Below, piece by piece: positions 21,546 to 31,493 of a stretch of DNA of 64,000 bases. Location: contig JAYGCL010000079.1 of the NCBI GenBank assembly GCA_046583365.1, positions 17,508 to 81,507 of the forward strand, written 5' to 3'. Position 1 is the stretch's first letter. The number at the start of each line of letters is the position of its first letter. Under the pieces are notes generated by a model, which made no database searches, was not told where the DNA came from, and saw only the letters and a list, made by a program, of their open reading frames with translations. The position numbers were made by a program, and so were the translations under genes. The DNA is from Deltaproteobacteria bacterium. GTDB lineage: Bacteria; Desulfobacterota; Binatia; UBA1149; CAYXZP01.

Positions 21546-22316
21546 TCAATCATGGGTTCCGGTTGCTTCGTGTTCGGACTCATCTCTGAGTTCCCCGATG
21601 GCCTGCAGAATAAGTTTGCGTCTGAGAAGAACTATGAGTTGTTCGACGAGTTTGATCCCGGCCTGGGCCATCTCGGCCACTTCGGCCGGGTCGAATTTGC
21701 CGGTGACGGCCCTGGTAAAGATCTTGAGTTCCTCTTTGGCCATCATCTTGATCGATCTGACGTACATCGGCATTGCACTGTGGGGGGGTACAACATCAGA
21801 ACCGAGGTTTGCTTCCTGCAGCAACCTGAAGGTCTCAAGTATCAGTACGTCGTCGCCTTCAAAGTACTCAACCCCGTTGCGTATGACGGGGGTCAGGACG
21901 TCGAGTTCAATGCAGTAATCGAGGTTCTCATCCGTGACCTGGTAGCGCGCGATGGCCTGCTGGCGGCTGACCGGTTTGTGGCCGGGAGAGTAGTGAATCT
22001 CTTCGTAAAGATTCCCCTCCAACCCCATCAGCGTATTAATTTCTCCTTGCGAGACGACGTTTTCGTCTCGGTCCAGGATTGTTTTTATGATGTCGAGAGG
22101 GAGAAAGCGCTTTCGCTGCAGTTCCTTGATTATGCGGATGCGGTCGACGAAGGAGCGGTCGTAGTAGGCCATGTTGCGGCCGGTTTTAAGCGTGGGCGCG
22201 GGCAGCAGGTCCTCGCGCATGTAGAATTTTATGGTGGCCGCCGATACGCCGGTCTCCCGGGCAAGGTCGGAAATCTTATAAAGCCCTTTGCGGGCGTTGT
22301 TGGTATCGGACGCCAT
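21546..22316 (-). CDS. MerR-family transcriptional regulator
   Basis: N-terminal MerR HTH (LYKISDLARETGVSAATIKFYMREDLLP) plus a C-terminal effector/dimerisation region. Confidence 0.75.
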   Translation of the reverse strand: MASDTNNARKGLYKISDLARETGVSAATIKFYMREDLLPAPTLKTGRNMAYYDRSFVDRIRIIKELQRKRFLPLDIIKTILDRDENVVSQGEINTLMGLEGNLYEEIHYSPGHKPVSRQQAIARYQVTDENLDYCIELDVLTPVIRNGVEYFEGDDVLILETFRLLQEANLGSDVVPPHSAMPMYVRSIKMMAKEELKIFTRAVTGKFDPAEVAEMAQAGIKLVEQLIVLLRRKLILQAIGELRDESEHEATGTHD

Positions 22317-22347
22317 GGTAAGTAGCTAGTACAACTATCTACTTACC
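22317..22347. promoter_or_regulatory. Perfect 9-bp inverted repeat GGTAAGTAG-N13-CTACTTACC abutting the merR start codon. Candidate MerR operator in the merR/glpD divergent promoter.
   Basis: Read directly. Dyad symmetry with a 13-bp spacer, located in the 146-bp divergent intergenic region. Confidence 0.45.
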
Positions 22348-22462
22348 CGTATGCTCCGGACGCTGTCAACAGTTTTTTGGTTTCCTCCCCATTTTTTCTC
22401 CACCTTCCGGTCTGGACAGTCCAAACACTTGATTTTCCAAGCTTTATTGACACAGCCCGAGG

Positions 22463-24130
22463 GTGGTATTAGGGCCACGGGGGATGGGTGGTTTTTCCGC
22501 AAGCAGCCGCAGGGGGGGGTTGGAAAGGGCGGCCGAGGGGGTGGCCGACCTGCTTGTGGTCGGTGCCGGCATCACCGGGGCCGGGGTAGCCCGTGAAGCG
22601 GCCTTGAGGGGATTGGCCATTGTTCTTCTGGACAAGGGGGATATTGGCGGGGGCACCAGCAGCCGTTCGTCCAAGCTCATCCATGGGGGCCTGCGCTACC
22701 TGGCCCAGGGTGAGGTGGGTCTGGTGCGTGAGGCGGCCCGTGAGCGTTCCGTGCTCCGGCGTATTGCCCCGCATCTGGCCAAGCCCGTGCCGGTACTTAT
22801 CCCGGCCGGGTCGAAAGCCGGGCGCATGCGTCTGGGCGCCGGCTTGTGGACTTTTGTAAAACTTGCCCCGGCCGGCTCGGGTGAGAGTTACCGTAGCCTG
22901 GATGCTGCCGAGACCTGTCAGGCCGAACCCCTCCTTAAAAAAGGCCGCCTGGCAGGTTCGGTGGCAATGACAGAGTACATTACCAGTGATGCCCGTCTGA
23001 CCTTGGAAACGGCCCGCTCGGCCGCCGTTGCCGGTGCGGTGGTGGCCAATTATGCCGAGGTGGTCGGGGTCGAGGAGGACAGCAGCGGATTCAGGGTGAC
23101 GGTAGAGGACCGCAGCGGGGGAGGCCGCCTGGTGATACGTTGCCGGGTCCTGGTCAATGCCGCCGGCCCATGGTTCGACCGGGTAAGGGCCCTGCTCGAT
23201 GACGGCCGACAGGCGGCGGCTAAGGGTATGGTACAACTCACCCGGGGTATCCACCTGGTTGTACCCCACCAGCGCCTGCCCCTTGGCCACATGGTCATTC
23301 TTCGGGCCGGCGACGGTCGTTCTACTTTTGCGATCCCGCGGCCCCCCTACACCTATATAGGCACCACTGACACGGCCTACGACGGGGCCCCCGAAGAGCC
23401 CGGGGTATCAACCGAGGATACCGCCTACCTGCTCGATTCGGTTTCGCTGGCCTTTGAAGATGCCCCTTCGGTTGCCGACGTGGTTGGGACCTGGTCAGGC
23501 GTGAGGCCCCTGCTACGGCAGGACGGTCGGCCCCCCCACGAGATATCCCGGCGCGATGAGATCGTCTGCGGTCCCGGGCCGGTTGTTTCGGTGGCCGGGG
23601 GGAAGCTGACAACTTACCGATGCATGGCGGTGAGGGTGATGGAAAAAGTTTTTGAGCTGCTGCACCGCAGCCCGGATGTTGATATCGATTCGGCGACGAT
23701 ACCGTTGGTCGGTGGTTCCCTGGCCGAACAACAGGCGGCCCGCCTCAAGGCCCCTGCTCTGGCCGACGAGGTCCTGGCCGACCGCCTGTGGTCGACCTAC
23801 GGGACCGAGGCACTGGGCATTGTCGAGCGCATCGCAAGCGCGCCGGCCGCGGGCGGGCCGGTCGGGGGTCTCAGCGAACTGACCCTGGCCGAAGTCGAGC
23901 ACGCCGTAGAAAGCGAGATGGTGATCACCCTCGACGACCTGTTGCGGCGCCGCTCGTCTGTTGCCATGTTCGATGGTGGCAGGGCGGCTGCGGCGGCCGT
24001 TGCGGTGGCCGCCTGCGTGGGCCGCCTGTGTGGCTGGTCGGACGGGCGCGTCCAGGCCGAAGCGGATACGGTCAGCCAACGCGCCATCGGTGAACTGGCC
24101 ACTGTGAAGAATACCGGCGAGTGCGGGTGA
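22463..24130 (+). CDS. glpD: FAD-dependent glycerol-3-phosphate dehydrogenase
   Basis: FAD fold DLLVVGAGITGAGVAREAALRG...SSRSSKLIHGGLRYL and a C-terminal GlpD-type domain. Confidence 0.8.
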   Translation: MVLGPRGMGGFSASSRRGGLERAAEGVADLLVVGAGITGAGVAREAALRGLAIVLLDKGDIGGGTSSRSSKLIHGGLRYLAQGEVGLVREAARERSVLRRIAPHLAKPVPVLIPAGSKAGRMRLGAGLWTFVKLAPAGSGESYRSLDAAETCQAEPLLKKGRLAGSVAMTEYITSDARLTLETARSAAVAGAVVANYAEVVGVEEDSSGFRVTVEDRSGGGRLVIRCRVLVNAAGPWFDRVRALLDDGRQAAAKGMVQLTRGIHLVVPHQRLPLGHMVILRAGDGRSTFAIPRPPYTYIGTTDTAYDGAPEEPGVSTEDTAYLLDSVSLAFEDAPSVADVVGTWSGVRPLLRQDGRPPHEISRRDEIVCGPGPVVSVAGGKLTTYRCMAVRVMEKVFELLHRSPDVDIDSATIPLVGGSLAEQQAARLKAPALADEVLADRLWSTYGTEALGIVERIASAPAAGGPVGGLSELTLAEVEHAVESEMVITLDDLLRRRSSVAMFDGGRAAAAAVAVAACVGRLCGWSDGRVQAEADTVSQRAIGELATVKNTGECG

Positions 24131-24136
24131 GTATAT

Positions 24137-25546
24137 ATGGGCGATAGTCTTGAAAGCCTGGAAAAACTGGTAAGCCGCAACGACAGCCTCGAACTGGTGA
24201 CCGAAGAAGCCGTCCGCGCCGAGTTGAGCCACGACAGTTGGATGCGCTCTCTCCTGCAACGGCGTGCCGGCCGCAGCGCCGCGATTGCCCGCGCGGTGGT
24301 AAGGCCTTCTACCACGGCCGACGTCTCGGCACTGCTCGAGTGGGCCGAGGCTTCACAAACGGCGGTAGTGCCCTACGGGCTGGGCTCGGGGGTATGCGGA
24401 GGTATCCTGGCCGGGGCCGATACCGTAGTCATCGACATGCGCAATATGGCCGCCATGGTGGATATAAACGAAGAGACTCTCAACGTAAGGGTACAGCCGG
24501 GTATGTGCGGTGCCGACTTTGAACGCGAACTGAACAGCCGTGGTCTCAGTATGGGCCACTTCCCCCAGTCCATAGGGGTTTCCAGCGTGGGCGGTTGGTG
24601 TGCCACGCGGGCCTCGGGGCAATTCTCGACCCGTTACGGAAATATCGAAGACATGATGGTAGGTTGTGAAGTGGTGTTGGCCGGCGGCAAAGTAGTGCGC
24701 ATGCCTGCGGCGCCGCGTTCCTCGACCGGCCCCGACCTCAAGGAACTATTCATGGGCAGCGAGGGGACCCTCGGCATTTTCACCGAACTCACCTTCCGCG
24801 TACACGAGTTGGCCGAGGAGTCGGCGGGTTGTTGCTACACGCTTGATTCGGTTGCTGCCGGTATCGAAGCCATGCGCCTGGTGATGAGGGCCGGCTGGCG
24901 GCCTGCGGCCATGCGACTCTATGATGCTACCGAGGCCGGCCGTCACTTTTCCATGGAAGGGGCTGAGGGACAGCCCGCTTTGCTCATAATCAGCGAGGGA
25001 CCGGCGGCTTTGGTGGAGTCCGAGGTGCGTACGGTCGGCGAGATTGTGGAAAAGGCCGGCGGGCGCAGCCGCGGCAGTGGCCCGGTGGAGAGTTGGCTGG
25101 AGCACCGCAACGAGGTTCCTTCTTTTGACGAACTTATAGACCGGGGCCTGGTGGTAGACACGATCGAAGTTGCAGTCGGCTGGGACCGTCTTGCCGGCCT
25201 TTTCGAAACAGCCATTGCCCGCGGTGCCGCCATAGAAGGGGTGATGGTCATGTCAGGCCACCTCTCCCACTGCTACGGAGACGGTGCCAATATCTATTTT
25301 ACTTTTGTCGGTACCCGCTCGGAGGCCGATGATGCCACCGCGCTTTACGACCGGGTCTGGGAGGCCACCATGGAGGCGACCCTTGAAGCGGGCGGTACCA
25401 TAGCCCACCACCACGGTATAGGCAGGGTGCGCAAGGACTGGTTGCGCCGGGAACTTGGCCCGGCCCATGAAGTCCTGCGCGCACTCAAGCGCACCCTGGA
25501 CCCCTCGGGCATTATGAACCCCGGGGTCTTAATGGACATGGACTGA
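24137..25546 (+). CDS. FAD-linked oxidase, alkyl-DHAP-synthase-like (AGPS-like)
   Basis: FAD_binding_4 domain (VVPYGLGSGVCGG). C-terminal HLSHCYGDGANIYFTF resembles the AGPS-type H-x-Y..GA.LYF motif rather than the HxxDGNxH of GlcD/Dld enzymes. Confidence 0.65.
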   Translation: MGDSLESLEKLVSRNDSLELVTEEAVRAELSHDSWMRSLLQRRAGRSAAIARAVVRPSTTADVSALLEWAEASQTAVVPYGLGSGVCGGILAGADTVVIDMRNMAAMVDINEETLNVRVQPGMCGADFERELNSRGLSMGHFPQSIGVSSVGGWCATRASGQFSTRYGNIEDMMVGCEVVLAGGKVVRMPAAPRSSTGPDLKELFMGSEGTLGIFTELTFRVHELAEESAGCCYTLDSVAAGIEAMRLVMRAGWRPAAMRLYDATEAGRHFSMEGAEGQPALLIISEGPAALVESEVRTVGEIVEKAGGRSRGSGPVESWLEHRNEVPSFDELIDRGLVVDTIEVAVGWDRLAGLFETAIARGAAIEGVMVMSGHLSHCYGDGANIYFTFVGTRSEADDATALYDRVWEATMEATLEAGGTIAHHHGIGRVRKDWLRRELGPAHEVLRALKRTLDPSGIMNPGVLMDMD

Positions 25547-25553
25547 AGCGGCC

Positions 25554-27014
25554 GTGGGCACACACGTGATGGGAATAGATGCCGGCACCACGGGGGTGCG
25601 GGCGTTGGTCTTTGATGAGACCGGGGGGGTCGTGGGCCGGGCCTACCGGGAACTGAAGGTGGATTTCCCACAGCCCGGCTGGGTGGAGCAGGATGCCGGC
25701 CTGGTGTGGTCGGCAACGCTGGAGGTGGCCCTTGCGGCCGTGTCCGAGGCCGGCCTTGTTCCCTCCGACCTTGGGGCCATAGGCATTGCCAACCAGCGCT
25801 CTTCCGTCGTGGCCTGGGACGGAGTTTCCCTGAGCCCGCTCTCTCCTCTGATCGCCTGGCAGGACCTGCGCACGCAAAACCGTTGCACGCAGTTGATGGC
25901 CGAGGGTTTTTACATCATTCCGATGCAGGCCGCCTCCAAGGCCGAATGGATCCTGGCCAATTGCCCGGCCGCTGCCACGGCTGCCAAGGCGGGCCATCTC
26001 CGCCTTGGCACGCCCAATAGCTGGTTGGCCGCGTGTTTAAGCGGCGGCGTCCACGCCTGTGACCACGCCAACGCCAGCACCACCGGCTTGTACGCCCATG
26101 TTGAGAGGGGTTGGGACGAGACTGTAATGCAGGCCTTGGGCCTGCAGCGGTCCTGGATGCCCGAACTGGTCGAGTCGAATACGGTTTTTGCCACCACGGC
26201 CGCCGACGTTTTCGGGGCCGAGGTGCCGCTGGCCTCTATGTGCGGTGACCAGCAGGCTTCGCTTTTTGGCCTGGGTTGCACCGAGGTGGGCCAGACCAAG
26301 TGTTCCTACGGTACCGCCGCGATGGTTGATTCCAATACCGGGTTTTCAATGACCGCGGCCGGTCCGGGCACCTACCCATTGGTGGCCTGGAGCTTTGACG
26401 GCCGCCCCACCTATTGCACCGAGGGCACGGTGGTTACGGCCGGAGCCGCCGTTCAGTGGTTGCGAGACGGACTCGGCTTGATCCAGCATGCCGCCGAAAC
26501 CTCCGCGCTGGCCCAGAGCATCAACGATGCCGGAGGAGTGTGGGCGGTGCCGGCACTGCAAGGGGTCGGCACCCCGATAATGGACCCATCCGCCCGGGCT
26601 ATGCTGGCCGGCCTGACGCGGGCCTCGGGCAAGGCCGAGGTCGTAAGGGCGGTGTTGGAGGGAATCGCCAACCGTGTAAGCGATGCGGCCGAGAGTCTGT
26701 GGTCGGAGAACGCGGGTCCGGCCGTATTGCGTGTCGATGGGGGCGCCAGCGCCAATGACTTTCTCATGCAACGCCAGGCCGACCTGCTCGGCATTGCCGT
26801 TGAGCGCGGGCGTGAGACCAATGGTGCCGCTTTGGGCGTGGCCGCCATGGCCGCGGCCGCTACCGGATTGTGGCAGGGCGATTGTTCGGGGGGAGCCTGG
26901 CAGCTTGAGCGTTGTTTTGAACCCTCAATCGACGAACAGCAAAGACAAGACGAACGTGGACTATGGGCCAAACGCCTGCAGGGGGCCGTGGCCCTGAGCC
27001 GCGTCGCAGACTGA
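25554..27014 (+). CDS. glpK: FGGY-family carbohydrate kinase, glycerol-kinase-like
   Basis: MGIDAGTTGVRALVFD, QPGWVEQDA, GIANQR, GDQQASLFG and VDGGASANDFLMQ parallel the GlpK motifs. Confidence 0.7.
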   Translation: MGTHVMGIDAGTTGVRALVFDETGGVVGRAYRELKVDFPQPGWVEQDAGLVWSATLEVALAAVSEAGLVPSDLGAIGIANQRSSVVAWDGVSLSPLSPLIAWQDLRTQNRCTQLMAEGFYIIPMQAASKAEWILANCPAAATAAKAGHLRLGTPNSWLAACLSGGVHACDHANASTTGLYAHVERGWDETVMQALGLQRSWMPELVESNTVFATTAADVFGAEVPLASMCGDQQASLFGLGCTEVGQTKCSYGTAAMVDSNTGFSMTAAGPGTYPLVAWSFDGRPTYCTEGTVVTAGAAVQWLRDGLGLIQHAAETSALAQSINDAGGVWAVPALQGVGTPIMDPSARAMLAGLTRASGKAEVVRAVLEGIANRVSDAAESLWSENAGPAVLRVDGGASANDFLMQRQADLLGIAVERGRETNGAALGVAAMAAAATGLWQGDCSGGAWQLERCFEPSIDEQQRQDERGLWAKRLQGAVALSRVAD

Positions 27015-27026
27015 CGGGCGAAGGGC

Positions 27027-27656
27027 GTGGGGTTTGAACTGGTCGTTTTTGACTGCGACGGAGTGCTGTTTGATTCCGACGGTGCCAATTGGGCCTTCTA
27101 TGATGAGATCATGAAGCGGGCCGGCCAGCCCCCCTTGCCGGAGACCGCCAGACCAGACGCCAGTGCCCTGGCCTCGGCCCAGCTGTTTCAGCGTTACTAC
27201 GGTGACGATCCCGAGTCTCTGGCCACCATTCGTGCCACGGCGCGGGCGACCGATTACGGTCCGTTCTTCTCCCTCATGAAACCACGCAGCGACCTGCGCC
27301 AGGTGATTGAGGGTCTCAGGGGCCGCTACCAAACGGCCATGGCCAGCAACCGCAGCCGCACGCTTGGCGGCGTGATAGAACATTTCGGGCTTGAGGGCCT
27401 GTTCGACCTTGTCGTCGGTGTGGCCGACGTCAAACATCCAAAGCCCGCCCCCGACATGCTGCTCGAATGCAGCCGTCGGCTGGGGGTGGACCCCGGCCGG
27501 GCGGTCTACGTGGGCGACCAGGAAAGCGACCGCCTGTCGGCCGCTGCCGCCGGCATGGTCTTTGTCGGCATCGGCGCTGCTGTGGCCGCCGCCGAGTTCA
27601 GGATCAACACCCTTGAGGAGCTGGAACCCCTGCTTGCGAGTATCGATTGCGCCTAG
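27027..27656 (+). CDS. HAD-superfamily hydrolase (phosphoglycolate/sugar-phosphate phosphatase-like)
   Basis: Motif I VVFDCDGVLFDS and motif IV VYVGDQESDRLSAAAAGMVFV. Confidence 0.7.
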   Translation: MGFELVVFDCDGVLFDSDGANWAFYDEIMKRAGQPPLPETARPDASALASAQLFQRYYGDDPESLATIRATARATDYGPFFSLMKPRSDLRQVIEGLRGRYQTAMASNRSRTLGGVIEHFGLEGLFDLVVGVADVKHPKPAPDMLLECSRRLGVDPGRAVYVGDQESDRLSAAAAGMVFVGIGAAVAAAEFRINTLEELEPLLASIDCA

Positions 27657-27686
27657 GCCGGAAAACGTGTTTGGAGGACGGCAAAC

Positions 27687-27949
27687 ATGAAGACAGTAAC
27701 GTATTATTTCGCTTACAATAGCCCCTATTCCTTTCTTGCCAATACCCGCTTGTTGGAACGGGAGTTGGAGCCGTGTGGTATCACCATAGACAGCCGCTGA
27801 CCTCTCAATGCGACCTCGATAGCGATGAGTTTTGCACGGCTATAGCGGCCGGCAGTCGCTACGATGAGGAGTTGCAACGGTGTAACCGGCAGGCCGAGGC
27901 CGATGGCGTTTTCGGGTTCCCGTTCTTTGTCTACTACGGGCGGCCATAG
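27687..27949 (+). pseudogene. Remnant of a DsbA-like 2-hydroxychromene-2-carboxylate isomerase family gene. The N-terminal 37 codons and the C-terminal ~45 codons are in different frames, and the central ~350 bp is missing.
   Basis: RBS GGAGG, then MKTVTYYFAYNSPYSFLANTRL (family N-terminal signature), then a TGA at 27798. A +2 frame continues ...AEADGVFGFPFFVYYGRP* (family C-terminal signature), ending at 27949. Confidence 0.5.
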
Positions 27950-27956
27950 AAGGAGT

Positions 27957-28334
27957 ATGATGAACGGAGCAAAGGAATTTCGCTGTGGTGTCGAGGCAAG
28001 AGACCTCGACCGGATGATGACTGCGTTTGCGGCAGAGGCCCGTCTGTTCAGCCCGGCCCATTGGAAACCGTTGGAAGGGAGAGAGGTCATCCAAGCGCTC
28101 CTTTCGGTACTGCTGCAGACCTTCGAGGACTTCGAGTACACCGATGAACTGACCTCCGCTGAAGGTACAACGGCCCTGATCTTCAGTGCCCGGGTCGGTA
28201 AGTTGGAACTTCAGGGCCTCGACCTTATACGTCTGTCCAGCGAAGGTTTGATAACTGAGTTCACCGTTATGGTGCGACCCTTCTCGGCCCTTGAGGCGTT
28301 GATGGCCAGGGTGACCGAAGGTCTGATGGCCTGA
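27957..28334 (+). CDS. SnoaL-like/NTF2-fold small protein
   Basis: About 125 aa from MMNGAKEF, preceded by RBS AAGGAG. The upstream part of track ORF 27864..28334 overlaps the pseudogene remnant. Confidence 0.45.
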   Translation: MMNGAKEFRCGVEARDLDRMMTAFAAEARLFSPAHWKPLEGREVIQALLSVLLQTFEDFEYTDELTSAEGTTALIFSARVGKLELQGLDLIRLSSEGLITEFTVMVRPFSALEALMARVTEGLMA

Positions 28335-28335
28335 C

Positions 28336-29334
28336 TCAGCCGGCCGCCGGGGCCAGCTGGTTGAGACGGTCGATGAGGGTGCGAAGGCGGCCGTAGCTTT
28401 CCATGTCGAAGTGCGTCGTCAGGCGGGTGAGTCCGTCGAGGGCCGGCTCGTCGAACTCTTCCTTGAAAACCCCTCGCTGTCGTATCGGTTGTCCGCCGAG
28501 GATGTCCGAGAACTCTTCGGACAGGCTCGCCAACGCGGTCTCCCCCAACTTTTGCGTGGTACGCAGGACCAGGCGGCGGCGGATCACGCGGGAAGAGTGG
28601 TAGCAGCGGTAGAAGTCGGTGATGTGTTGCACGGCTGTGTCGACGTTGTCGGTAATGGAGTAAAGGTTGAGGTCGGTGGGACTGATAAGGCCCCGGCCGA
28701 GGAGGTGGCGACGCACGTAGTCGTCCCAGCCCTGCCAGTAGTCTCCGCCGGGGATGTCGAGAAGGATTATGGGCATCAGTTGGGCCTTGCCGGTTTGCAC
28801 CAGGGTCAGCGTTTCAAAGCCTTCATCGTGGGTGCCGAAACCGCCGGGCAGAAGTACCACGGCCGAGGACTCTTTTAAGAAGAACAGTTTGCGGGTGAAG
28901 AAGTATTTAAAGTCCACCAGCTTGCGGTCTCCGCGGATCACCGGGTTGGCCACGTTCTCAAAGGGCAGTTTTATATTGACCCCGAAGCTGCGCTTGCGCC
29001 CGGCTCCCTGTTGGCAGGCCTCCATGATGCCGGGCCCGGCTCCGGTGATAACCATGAAGCCGGCATCGGCGATGCGCCGGGAAAAGTCGCGGGCCAGGTC
29101 ATAGATCGGCGTGTCGGGGCGAGTACGGGCCGAACCGAAGGTCGTTACCTTGCGCACCGAGGCGTAGGGACGAAAGCAGGCCAGGCCCCGGCGGATCTCG
29201 TCCATGGCCGACTCGATGAGTTTGAGGTCGGCCACCGCGATGCCGTCGTCGGCTAGGTTGAGGCAGGTCTGTATGAGCTTGGCCAGTAAGGGGCCGGTTC
29301 TGGGGTCGTCGATTTTGTCGGAAGGCTTGCCCAT
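28336..29334 (-). CDS. LOG-family protein, long form (TIGR00730 Rossmann fold with N-terminal extension)
   Basis: VTTFGSARTRPDTPIYDLARDFSRRIADAGFMVITGAGPGIMEA...LLPGGFGTHDEGFETLTLVQTGK. Confidence 0.7.
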   Translation of the reverse strand: MGKPSDKIDDPRTGPLLAKLIQTCLNLADDGIAVADLKLIESAMDEIRRGLACFRPYASVRKVTTFGSARTRPDTPIYDLARDFSRRIADAGFMVITGAGPGIMEACQQGAGRKRSFGVNIKLPFENVANPVIRGDRKLVDFKYFFTRKLFFLKESSAVVLLPGGFGTHDEGFETLTLVQTGKAQLMPIILLDIPGGDYWQGWDDYVRRHLLGRGLISPTDLNLYSITDNVDTAVQHITDFYRCYHSSRVIRRRLVLRTTQKLGETALASLSEEFSDILGGQPIRQRGVFKEEFDEPALDGLTRLTTHFDMESYGRLRTLIDRLNQLAPAAG

Positions 29335-29387
29335 AGGCTTCTGTCTTGCGTCGGCCGCCGGTCAGTGCAAGCCGCCGACCGCCGCTC

Positions 29388-30392
29388 TCAGTGGCCGTCG
29401 CGGTGTTGATTGATTTCGAGCAGTCGAAATTTCGCGCTGGGGGCGATGCCGTCACGGTCGTAGACTATCGCCTCAACGCCTGCCGCCTGGGCCACGGCCA
29501 GCCCCTTGCGGCCCGTGATCACCAGGGCCGTGGACCAGGCCTCGGCCACCGCGGCCCGTGGGGCCATTGCGGTGGCAAGGCGGGGGGGAAGAACCGGGCT
29601 TAAATTGAAAGGGTCAATGATGGGCCCAACCTCGGCTGCCGGTCCCAAGGCCTTTGAGGTTGAAAGGGCCGCGTCGTGCAGTTCGACTGCACCCAGGAGT
29701 TGCCCCGGTTGGATGCCGCCGAGGGCCACCCGCCAGGCTTTGTCCCCTCTGGTCCGCCCGAGGGCCATGTGGCTGGAACCGCCGAAGTCGGCAAAGGCCC
29801 CGCGTGCGCCTTTGGATTTTAAAAAATCCACGATCTTGTCCAGGGCCAGGCCTTTGCCTATGCCACCGGCGTCCAGACGGACCCCGGGCAGGAGGGAGGC
29901 TGTGGGACGGGCTCCCTTTGCGCCTTCGAGGGTAAGGGCGGTTTGCAGACTCAAGGCTCCGCGCAAGGCCGCGCGTTCGAGCGTGTGCAGGTCGGCGGCG
30001 GTTGGAGTTTTGTGTTGCCGCCATAAATCCACGGCTGGCCCCAGGGCCGGGTCAAAGGTGGCCTTGGTGGCTTGGGCCAGGTCTTTCATTGTCGCCAGGG
30101 CCCAGGCCAGGTCCGGGCTTATGGCTACGGCTCCACTGCCGGCCTTGAGGTTGAGCCGTTCCAGCTCCCCTTCGGGCCGCCAGGTGGTAAGCACGTCGTC
30201 CCAGTGCCGGGCGATTGCAATACAAGCCTGGGCCAGACGGTCGGCTTCCTCGCCGGTGGCGGCCACCACTTCGACTTGCAAGACGGTGCCCATGACGGCC
30301 GCCGCCGCCTTTGCCGAGGCAGCGCCGGCGGCTGTGGCCGGGGCCGCCAGGACAAACAGAAGAAATACCAGCGCCGGCAGCGCTCGCGTCAA
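29388..30392 (-). CDS. apbE: FAD:protein FMN transferase
   Basis: Signal peptide, and an ApbE fold with LDAGGIGKGLALDK and a C-terminal Mg/FAD-binding region. Confidence 0.8.
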   Translation of the reverse strand: MTRALPALVFLLFVLAAPATAAGAASAKAAAAVMGTVLQVEVVAATGEEADRLAQACIAIARHWDDVLTTWRPEGELERLNLKAGSGAVAISPDLAWALATMKDLAQATKATFDPALGPAVDLWRQHKTPTAADLHTLERAALRGALSLQTALTLEGAKGARPTASLLPGVRLDAGGIGKGLALDKIVDFLKSKGARGAFADFGGSSHMALGRTRGDKAWRVALGGIQPGQLLGAVELHDAALSTSKALGPAAEVGPIIDPFNLSPVLPPRLATAMAPRAAVAEAWSTALVITGRKGLAVAQAAGVEAIVYDRDGIAPSAKFRLLEINQHRDGH

Positions 30393-30395
30393 CTC

Positions 30396-30917
30396 TCAGT
30401 CCCCGTTCTCGCCGTTACTGTTGGACGGGCCGTAAGCGCTTGGCAGTTCGAAGAGCAGGGCCCGGGCCACCAGTATTACCAGGATGGCAATCACGCCCTG
30501 CAGGAGCAGGAACATGGAGATTTTCATCCAGGCAAACCCCGGATGCACAAAGCGTACGCCCCAGCCGGCCAACTCGCCGCCCATGCCGGCGCCGAAGGCA
30601 AGGGCGATACCCCAGGCCTTGATACGCATGGAAATCGGTACAAACAGGGTCAGGTGGGTGAGCGTAAGCAGCAGGATGCCCATGGCAAAACTGTGGAAGT
30701 GGAGCATTTCCAGCAGCCCGACAAAGCTGCGGGGCTGCAGGTAGAGTTCTTCGTTGCCGAGGTAATAGTCGATTACCGAAGCCGGGTTGAGGCTCATCTT
30801 TGAAAAGTAAAGACCGATGTTGGTCAGCCACAACACCACCGTGTAGGCCAGGAAACACCACACGATCATTTTGAGTAGACGGTTTTTGGTCCACTCTCCG
30901 GTTACTACGAAACGCAT
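30396..30917 (-). CDS. 4-TM integral membrane protein with conserved His in TM helices, possibly DUF4405/cytochrome-b-like
   Basis: Four predicted TM helices. Histidines sit inside hydrophobic segments (EMLHFHSFAMG, LTLTHLTLF). Lies between the FMN-binding gene and apbE. Confidence 0.5.
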   Translation of the reverse strand: MRFVVTGEWTKNRLLKMIVWCFLAYTVVLWLTNIGLYFSKMSLNPASVIDYYLGNEELYLQPRSFVGLLEMLHFHSFAMGILLLTLTHLTLFVPISMRIKAWGIALAFGAGMGGELAGWGVRFVHPGFAWMKISMFLLLQGVIAILVILVARALLFELPSAYGPSNSNGENGD

Positions 30918-30929
30918 GACTATAACGGC

Positions 30930-31493
30930 CTAATCGTTGTCGGTTGGGGAGGCGGCGATGACTTCTTCATAAACCGCCAGCGCGCGGCCCACGGCGGAGA
31001 CCACGGCCCGCGAACTCAACGTCGAGCCGGTTACGGCGGCCAGGTCGCGGCCTATACGCAGGCCACTGCCCAGGCGCTTGCCCTTGAGTTGCTCCAACCA
31101 ACGCGCGCTCGGCAAGTATTCCAACGGCTCGTAGAAGGCAAGGACGTACACGGCACGTACCCGCCCGTCCGGGGAGAGGACGGTCAGGAAAGCCTCGGGG
31201 AGGGTGCGTACGATGTGGGTGTCGAGCAAGGCATAGCCGAGGGGTTCGTCTTGTTTGTAGCCGCTGTAGACTTTTATCAGGTCCGAATCGAGTCTGGTTC
31301 TGGCCGCGGCCTCGATTCGTTGGTGCTGGTCGGGACTAAGAAACAGCGTTGTCGTCTCGGTACGGGTGGCCTCGGGAAAGGCCAGGGCCGGCACCTCATC
31401 AAGTGAGTAGAAAACCGTTGCCGCGGCTTGGCCCGGGCAGGCCAGGCCGCAGGCAACAACCAGAGTGAGGCAAGGTTTCAGGAATGCTGGCAT
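30930..31493 (-). CDS. FMN-binding domain lipoprotein, likely an ApbE flavinylation substrate
   Basis: Lipobox LVVAC, and FMN_bind flavinylation motif GRDLAAVTGSTLSSRAV near the C-terminus. Confidence 0.65.
   Translation of the reverse strand: MPAFLKPCLTLVVACGLACPGQAAATVFYSLDEVPALAFPEATRTETTTLFLSPDQHQRIEAAARTRLDSDLIKVYSGYKQDEPLGYALLDTHIVRTLPEAFLTVLSPDGRVRAVYVLAFYEPLEYLPSARWLEQLKGKRLGSGLRIGRDLAAVTGSTLSSRAVVSAVGRALAVYEEVIAASPTDND

Follow-up and report, generated by a model that had tools for sequence, protein, structure and literature searches.

Probable remnant of a DsbA/HCCA-isomerase-family gene, shortened by two deletions, beside an intact SnoaL/NTF2-family gene

Results

Genes and features at the locus

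The window, the whole 64-kb stretch of DNA that we analysed, carries at 27687-27949 two short pieces of coding sequence in different frames, directly followed by an intact SnoaL_2/NTF2-family gene. Pfam searches identified an FAD oxidase, an FGGY sugar kinase and a HAD hydrolase upstream of these pieces and, convergent with them downstream, a LOG-family gene, ApbE and an Aq_1264-type membrane protein. The features of the locus are as follows.

27027-27656, + strand: HAD-family hydrolase (Pfam, synteny), the left flank and the last gene of a DAO-FAD oxidase-FGGY kinase-HAD block
27657-28335, no strand: lineage-specific segment of ~680 bp (leader, remnant and SnoaL gene), bounded by the HAD and LOG stop codons, the two genes being convergent
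27673-27678, + strand: Shine-Dalgarno-like GGAGGA, 8 nt upstream of the remnant's ATG (read off the sequence)
27687-27797, + strand: N-terminal DsbA/HCCA-isomerase-family fragment, family residues ~4-38, YYFAYNSPYSFLANTR..., including the YNSPYS active-site-region motif
27687-27800, + strand: 37-codon ORF, translated as MKTVTYYFAYNSPYSFLANTRLLERELEPCGITIDSR and then stop
27791-27812, + strand: interval holding the internal deletion junction (tblastn pieces end and start at 27797; phase 0 to 2)
27797-27946, + strand: C-terminal fragment, family residues ~126-174, ...AEADGVFGFPFFVYYG, in frame -1 relative to the N-terminal fragment
27798-27800, + strand: TGA, the first out-of-frame stop, closing the 37-codon ORF
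27947-27949, + strand: premature TAG closing the remnant, with the family's last 19-21 residues (KFWGNDRIEWL...) absent
27950-27955, + strand: Shine-Dalgarno AAGGAG of the SnoaL/NTF2 gene (read off the sequence)
27957/27960-28334, + strand: intact SnoaL_2/NTF2-family gene of 124-125 aa (Pfam PF12680, E 1e-7)
28336-29334, - strand: LOG/TIGR00730-family gene (Pfam, NCBIfam, synteny), the right flank

The first-pass annotation, made from the sequence alone, had described an ORF that follows a ribosome-binding site and stops after 37 codons, with the C-terminal part of the same family in a different frame. Both were confirmed: GGAGGA precedes the ORF at 27687-27800, and the second-frame reading, ...DLDSDEFCTAIAAGSRYDEELQRCNRQAEADGVFGFPFFVYYGRP (also ...QPLTSQCDLDSDEFCTAIAAGSRYDEELQRCNRQAEADGVFGFPFFVYYGRP), terminates at the TAG. 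The separation of about 100 bp given for the two parts holds only as the distance to the GVFGFPFF motif; the fragments themselves abut at ~27797 (± 10 nt), and their frames overlap at 27773-27800. The ribosome-binding site of the SnoaL gene had been placed across the remnant's stop codon, but AAGGAG instead begins right after the TAG. A single uninterrupted ORF is absent, the fragments lying in different frames and the first frame meeting a stop at 27798-27800, or 15 codons later in strains that carry TGG there. The expected gene has 190-195 codons (about 575-590 bp) and the remnant measures 263 bp; the first-pass figures were about 600 and about 260 bp.

The SnoaL gene is intact in all strains. 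Its short start at 27957/27960 is backed by gene callers and by homologues, whose alignments begin at SnoaL residue ~4-11. A longer ORF of 156 codons (27864-28334) runs in the SnoaL frame from an ATG at 27864, inside the remnant. At NCBI, a 58-aa ORF of the remnant is entered as hypothetical protein VCA74_08270 (MFP6627030.1), with the HAD protein (MFP6627029.1) and a "nuclear transport factor 2 family protein" (MFP6627031.1) as its neighbours. JGI names the same ORF "2-hydroxychromene-2-carboxylate isomerase", and neither annotation carries a pseudogene flag.

Both fragments derive from the same protein family

A tblastn search of the whole 64-kb window with full-length family proteins, which had been proposed as a check on the first-pass annotation, returned two collinear pieces. 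The 195-aa protein P0100 matched at 27696-27788 with its residues 6-35 (71% identity, E 1.3e-8) and at 27797-27943 with its residues 126-174 (61% identity, E 2.7e-15); these were its only matches below E 0.1 in the 64 kb and lie on the same strand, in collinear order and in different frames. The N-terminal fragment is 62-74% identical to P0100, P0079, P0012 and P0093 (E 1e-8 to 8e-11, tblastn over the whole window), and the C-terminal fragment is 55-61% identical to full-length relatives (E 1e-11 to 3e-15, tblastn), the relatives of 190-195 aa being 61-74% identical to the fragments. We found no paralogue of the remnant elsewhere in the 64-kb window.

The decisive relatives came from an exhaustive phmmer search with the 58-aa ORF against 1.84 billion representatives. 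Both window fragments match a complete DsbA-like domain in the protein P0005, and this domain, used as a query, retrieved 212 proteins at E ≤ 1e-5. Among the 120 matches listed of these 212, most are 187-200 aa long, all have PF01323, and many bear the source name "2-hydroxychromene-2-carboxylate isomerase". Intact relatives span the DSBA profile from 1 to 190/191 (E 1e-29), and the solved structures nearest to them are those of the HCCA isomerases 3fz5 and 2imd (full length, E ~2e-15).

Profile matches of the fragments themselves are weak but collinear. The N-terminal fragment aligns with positions 1-21 of the Pfam DSBA profile PF01323 (E 0.041, 14.1 bits) and the C-terminal fragment with positions 132-172 of 191 (E 0.018, 15.2 bits), each alone below the gathering score of 25.6 bits. 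Against the PDB, the N-terminal fragment matched residues 3-32 of the HCCA isomerase 2imd (E 0.079) and the C-terminal fragment residues ~148-199 of FrnE/SCO1869 (E 0.4-1). An NCBIfam search with the fragments gave nothing meaningful. We accepted family membership because full-length relatives match two abutting, collinear pieces far more strongly than Pfam does, and alignment to 109 full-length family members upholds the DsbA/HCCA-isomerase assignment of the first-pass annotation. The N-terminal active-site-region motif is present, with YYFAYNSPYSFLA aligned to FYFDFLSPFSYLA of 2imd. Judged by these comparisons, the ancestral gene is a member of the DSBA-like thioredoxin family (PF01323), within its cysteine-less HCCA-isomerase/kappa-GST-like branch.

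Prokaryotic HCCA isomerases have been linked to kappa GSTs (Robinson et al. 2004, as cited in PMC10295636). Like the members of this branch (PF01323; PDB 2imd/2ime/2imf NahD, 3fz5), the remnant has the N-terminal FYFxxxSPxSxLA motif, with Ser where DsbA has CxxC (SPYS), and the GVFGxPxF strand. Those members are complete, whereas the window copy covers ~85 of ~190 residues in two frames and has neither the helical domain nor the FWGNDR motif, and we therefore regard it as a relic rather than an enzyme belonging to the branch. Identity between NahD and the ~190-aa subfamily is only ~25-30%, as judged by eye from the alignment. The FrnE/DsbA-like oxidoreductases (PDB 5cnw, 5cp1, 3gl5) belong to the same Pfam family, and their residues ~148-199 align with the C-terminal fragment; they differ in having a CxxC active site and 240-260 aa, whereas the remnant's family has SPYS, and the matches are marginal. 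In some members of the intact ~190-aa DsbA-like subfamily an N-terminal AIG2/gamma-glutamyl-cyclotransferase-like domain is fused, or was called as fused, to the DsbA-like domain (PF13772/PF06094 + PF01323): P0005 (354 aa), P0036 (291 aa) and P0105 (239 aa). These fusions hint at a possible glutathione- or gamma-glutamyl-related role for the ~190-aa subfamily.

Two stretches of the gene are missing

Relative to the family, residues ~39-125 are missing at ~27797, a loss of about 87-91 codons plus 1 nt (~262-271 bp) that removes the helical insertion and much of the core. The phase changes from 0 to 2, so the internal deletion must be of 3n+1 nt. The position of the junction is uncertain within 27791-27812 because both frames are weakly similar to the family there. 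A second lesion removes the last 19-21 codons. The remnant ends in ...FFVYYGRP before its stop, and relatives carry on with ...Y(K/R)G(H/R/K)KFWGNDRIEWLV... to theirs; the lost part includes the conserved FWGNDRIEWL, and its columns are mostly ≥ 90% conserved. We did not find the FWGNDRIEWL segment in any frame downstream of the remnant. We rejected the idea that the DsbA frame carries on beyond the TAG, as the sequence there, KEYDERSKGISLW, is unlike KFWGNDRIEWL. The family alignment thus bears out the first-pass picture of retained N- and C-terminal signatures, a deleted middle and shifted frames, with the correction that the extreme C-terminus (~19-21 codons) has also been lost.

We assessed what the lesions removed using the conservation of the 109 full-length members, in whose alignment 58 columns are ≥ 90% conserved. 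Thirty-six of these 58 columns lie in the lost parts. Where the remnant does cover conserved columns, it keeps the consensus residue at 20 of 22 (12/12 in the N-terminal fragment and 8/10 in the C-terminal fragment), and neither frameshifts nor stops interrupt the retained pieces. The remnant does not contain the full ~190-residue domain, a thioredoxin fold with an inserted helical domain. Two deletions accompanied by so little point-mutation decay suggest a fairly recent inactivation, or else some residual constraint on the sequence. Taking the homology and the lesions together, we consider 27687-27949 very probably to be a non-functional remnant (pseudogene) of a gene of ~190-195 codons.

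The lesions recur in independent assemblies

The window comes from a metagenome-assembled genome (MAG), so a collapsed or mis-joined assembly that conceals an intact gene of ~200 codons is a possibility a priori, and several short contigs end in or near the region, at 27896 and 27916. We recovered copies of the locus from public assemblies by exact-protein look-ups. Ten other independent assemblies span both lesions with 98.9-100% identity to the window and zero gaps: L001 (SRR27277814), L002 (ERR10542833), L003 (ERR10542836), L004 (ERR14025298), L164 (ERR10542865), L165 (ERZ27300294), L166 (ERZ23486799), L168 (ERZ27332921), L169 (JGI 3300040949) and L170 (JGI 3300047570). They differ in sample, pipeline and k-mer size (Logan, MEGAHIT k119/k141, scaffolds, JGI), and a continuous ORF of ~200 codons, which had been named as the sign of an assembly error, appears in none of them; gene decay as opposed to assembly collapse, the first-pass reading, is thereby supported. 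The family also has no internal repeat able to cause a collapse. A search of 5.8 billion clustered proteins for an intact allele sharing words with the concatenated remnant returned only the species' own 58-aa cluster. An assembly artefact is, on this evidence, exceedingly improbable.

Seven SNP sites fall in the 263-bp remnant, three of them synonymous. At 27800 an A/G difference turns the TGA into TGG in L002, L003, L169 and L170 and lengthens the ORF to 52 codons; in the frame of the C-terminal fragment the same site is Thr/Ala, and the G is probably ancestral, since Ala is the family consensus. The other replacements are N>H at 27717 in the near-invariant YNSPY motif (L169 and L170), E>K at 27756 and A>V at 27846. 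The ratio of nonsynonymous to synonymous sites is 4:3 in the remnant and 22:50 in flanking genes (odds ratio 3.0, Fisher p = 0.21), a trend in the direction of relaxed constraint that does not reach significance in a comparison underpowered by too few sites. Both deletions are fixed in all sampled strains and are thus older than about 1% sequence divergence.

Some contigs show other differences in this region. The ENA scaffold ERZ23486250 (L005, positions 1-1653) carries a LivF-like ABC ATPase and a DUF6867 gene (PF21741, profile 9-103/106) joined in frame to window position 27896 onward, with junction 946/947 corresponding to window 27895/27896. After the junction come the remnant's last 17 codons, the SnoaL gene and the 3' end of the LOG gene, with 100% identity over 707 bp; the upstream part has a GC content of 0.67 and is absent from the window. 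This type of junction reflects either a chimeric assembly or strain-level structural variation. Shared contig starts occur at 27896 (L007, from another sample, the same base as the L005 junction), at 27916 (L006 and L008) and at 26923 (L010 and L011). In the FGGY kinase, codon 185 (26107-26108) has GG (Arg) in the window and CC (Thr) in every other covering contig (L001-L003, L169 and L170). Only the window's MAG has this adjacent double substitution, which could be genuine strain variation or an error in the consensus.

Expression and possible retained functions

No terminator-like site was found between the HAD and SnoaL genes, and the remnant is probably still transcribed by read-through from the glycerol-type operon (DAO-FAD oxidase-FGGY-HAD). 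The 37-codon ORF, with its good Shine-Dalgarno sequence, may be translated into a useless peptide. We infer that neither a DsbA-like fold nor a DsbA-like activity could result from the remnant. Glutathione-dependent isomerase or transferase activity and thiol-disulfide activity are not expected, because the core is missing.

The same Shine-Dalgarno sequence, the overlap of the two frames and the calling of the 58-aa ORF as a gene at both NCBI and JGI could instead point to recoding, in which a -1 frameshift fuses the pieces into a product of ~87 aa, or to functional mini-proteins encoded by the 37- and 58-aa ORFs. The junction ...CAG CCG CTG A... (GACAGCCGCTGACCTC), however, offers no X XXY YYZ slippery heptamer, and Rfam gave no match over 27400-28200 beyond one at chance level on the other strand. 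A fusion of the pieces would be without 88 residues of the core and without the C-terminal motif, and the TGG that replaces the stop in four strains alters product length. Short homologous proteins were not found beyond the species' own copies. We regard recoding or functional mini-proteins as very unlikely.

A further alternative is exaptation, that is, retention of the remnant because it serves the SnoaL gene as a spacer or as a 5' leader with a promoter. The only two sigma-70-like sites in 27000-28600, where 0.3 are expected, both lie within the AT-richer N-terminal fragment, one of them being AAGACA-18-TACAAT (27690-27719, + strand), and the remnant is fixed in all sampled strains. These sites are consensus matches only, at 9/12 positions, and the low GC content there follows from a peptide rich in F, Y and N. 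SnoaL could be expressed by read-through, with no terminator after HAD, and fixation among strains just 1% diverged says little. Exaptation as a leader is accordingly improbable in our judgement. We give slightly less credence to a broader variant, in which the remnant would not be inert but would serve both as an expression leader for a horizontally acquired SnoaL/NTF2 gene and as a strain-level recombination junction that moves a "tail-of-DsbA + SnoaL" module. The leader part of this variant is prompted by the promoter-like N-terminal part and by the remnant's position flush against the SnoaL ribosome-binding site, and the junction part by the recurrent contig breaks at 27896/27916 and the alternative upstream context in L005.

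The remnant and the SnoaL gene occupy a lineage-specific segment

Homologues of the HAD protein drop from 99% identity within the species straight to ≤ 57%, and the searched data contained no relative at 57-99% identity that could show an intact syntenic copy. We compared three of the nearest relatives with genomic context, namely L171-173 (GCA_966190875.1 and two ENA assemblies), L174 (JGI 3300048539) and a third JGI contig. In these three relatives the block reads MerR, then DAO-FAD oxidase-FGGY-HAD converging on LOG-ApbE-Aq_1264, and HAD and LOG overlap or sit 1-2 nt apart in all of them. L171-L174 share up to ten orthologous genes with the window (44-84% amino acid identity, tblastn), and tblastn detected no trace of a DsbA-like or SnoaL gene in their loci. 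We conclude that 27657-28335 is lineage-specific, since HAD and LOG abut in the relatives with neither gene between them. The comparison with syntenic loci that the first-pass annotation had suggested thus finds the segment absent in all three. The segment has a GC content of 0.555, against 0.645 and 0.622 in the 5-kb flanks, and stands at the 10th percentile of same-size windows. L171 and L174 resemble each other somewhat more closely than they do the window (64% against 55% identity for HAD), and one loss is therefore as parsimonious as one gain. On the comparisons made here, the segment of remnant plus SnoaL is probably an insertion.

The surrounding block of ten genes, at 21546-31493, is syntenic with L171 and L174 at the same 44-84% amino acid identity. 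Its genes are MerR, then GlpD-like DAO, FAD-linked oxidase, FGGY kinase and HAD on one side and, converging on them, LOG, ApbE, the Aq_1264-type membrane protein and an FMN_bind-like ORF. The block is a conserved glycerol-type operon facing an ApbE/flavin-related cluster. The source names of related HAD proteins include Binatia and "Deltaproteobacteria".

We looked for the DsbA-like gene near homologues of its present neighbours. The best match of a HAD scan of genome contigs had 45% identity and the best non-self match of a SnoaL scan of metagenomes 53%, and none of 140+ loci had a DsbA-like gene near the HAD or SnoaL homologue; DsbA is therefore no conserved neighbour of these two genes. Intact family members occur in varied surroundings (a molybdopterin oxidoreductase operon, an NTF2-like Lumazine_bd_2 gene, or none) that give no functional clue here, and no conserved DsbA-SnoaL operon that would explain the pairing was found. 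In the P0087/P0079 lineage, whose DsbA-like protein is among those closest to the remnant, the intact gene for that protein is closely preceded by an NTF2-like Lumazine_bd_2 gene (PF12893; L157:132-410 and L158:2-196). BLAST detected no similarity between this gene and the window's SnoaL, and a link of this neighbour to the DsbA-SnoaL pairing is only a hint.

Two candidate traces of the mode of insertion were rejected. A 14-nt direct repeat, CCCTTGAGGAGCTG / CCCTTGAGGCGTTG, identical at 12/14 positions, lies at 27610-27623 and 28288-28301, with the copies exactly 33 nt before the HAD stop and before the SnoaL stop and a spacing of 678 nt that equals the distance between these stops. By our own estimate, ~1-2 such matches per 1 kb are expected by chance; the 33 nt that follow the two copies show no relation to each other, and relatives of the HAD protein share its tail (LEELEPLL) as native sequence. 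We also discarded an integron cassette, because the SnoaL stop lies 1 nt from the LOG stop and leaves no room for attC.

Discussion

In the account that we favour, the DsbA/HCCA-isomerase-family gene and the SnoaL/NTF2 gene would have entered the lineage together on a single piece of foreign DNA, after which the former would have been broken, or possibly was already broken on arrival. This DsbA-like gene would have lost ~262 bp internally, with a frameshift, and also its 3' end, which would have left the SnoaL ribosome-binding site flush against the premature TAG, and the SnoaL gene would have stayed intact throughout. We infer the order of these events, the place of the decay and the read-through expression.

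The gene may have decayed partly or wholly before it reached this locus, since the nearest known relatives lack the segment at their syntenic loci. The gene may thus never have been intact in this lineage, if foreign DNA with a DsbA-like gene already broken beside SnoaL was inserted between HAD and LOG, the decay having taken place in the donor or during illegitimate recombination. The remnant would be a pseudogene in this case also, and only the site of decay would differ. Consistent with such an origin are the absence of the segment from syntenic relatives, its GC content below that of the flanks, its exact fit between two stop codons, and the finding that HAD, LOG and this SnoaL are not conserved neighbours of intact family members. 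The remnant nevertheless has its own Shine-Dalgarno sequence, start codon and unblemished N-terminal 37 codons, for which a complete gene once present at the site is the simplest explanation, and no donor sequence was found. We therefore hold decay in situ to be moderately probable and decay in a donor to be a tentative alternative.

The remnant is a fresh instance of a very familiar feature, an ordinary pseudogene. It shares with bacterial pseudogenes formed by internal deletion and truncation the homology to an intact family, the frame-disrupting deletion, the 3' loss, the polymorphic nonsense codon and the miscalling as short "hypothetical proteins". Nothing about it is unusual compared with typical bacterial pseudogenes, and the added detail is only its location in a small lineage-specific segment beside an intact gene. 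It offers a small, clean example of a lineage-specific segment between convergent conserved genes that has been trimmed by deletions, with its passenger SnoaL/NTF2 gene intact. The main value of the finding lies in annotation: neither the NCBI nor the JGI entry is a working gene, and the organism should therefore not be credited with HCCA isomerase activity from this locus.
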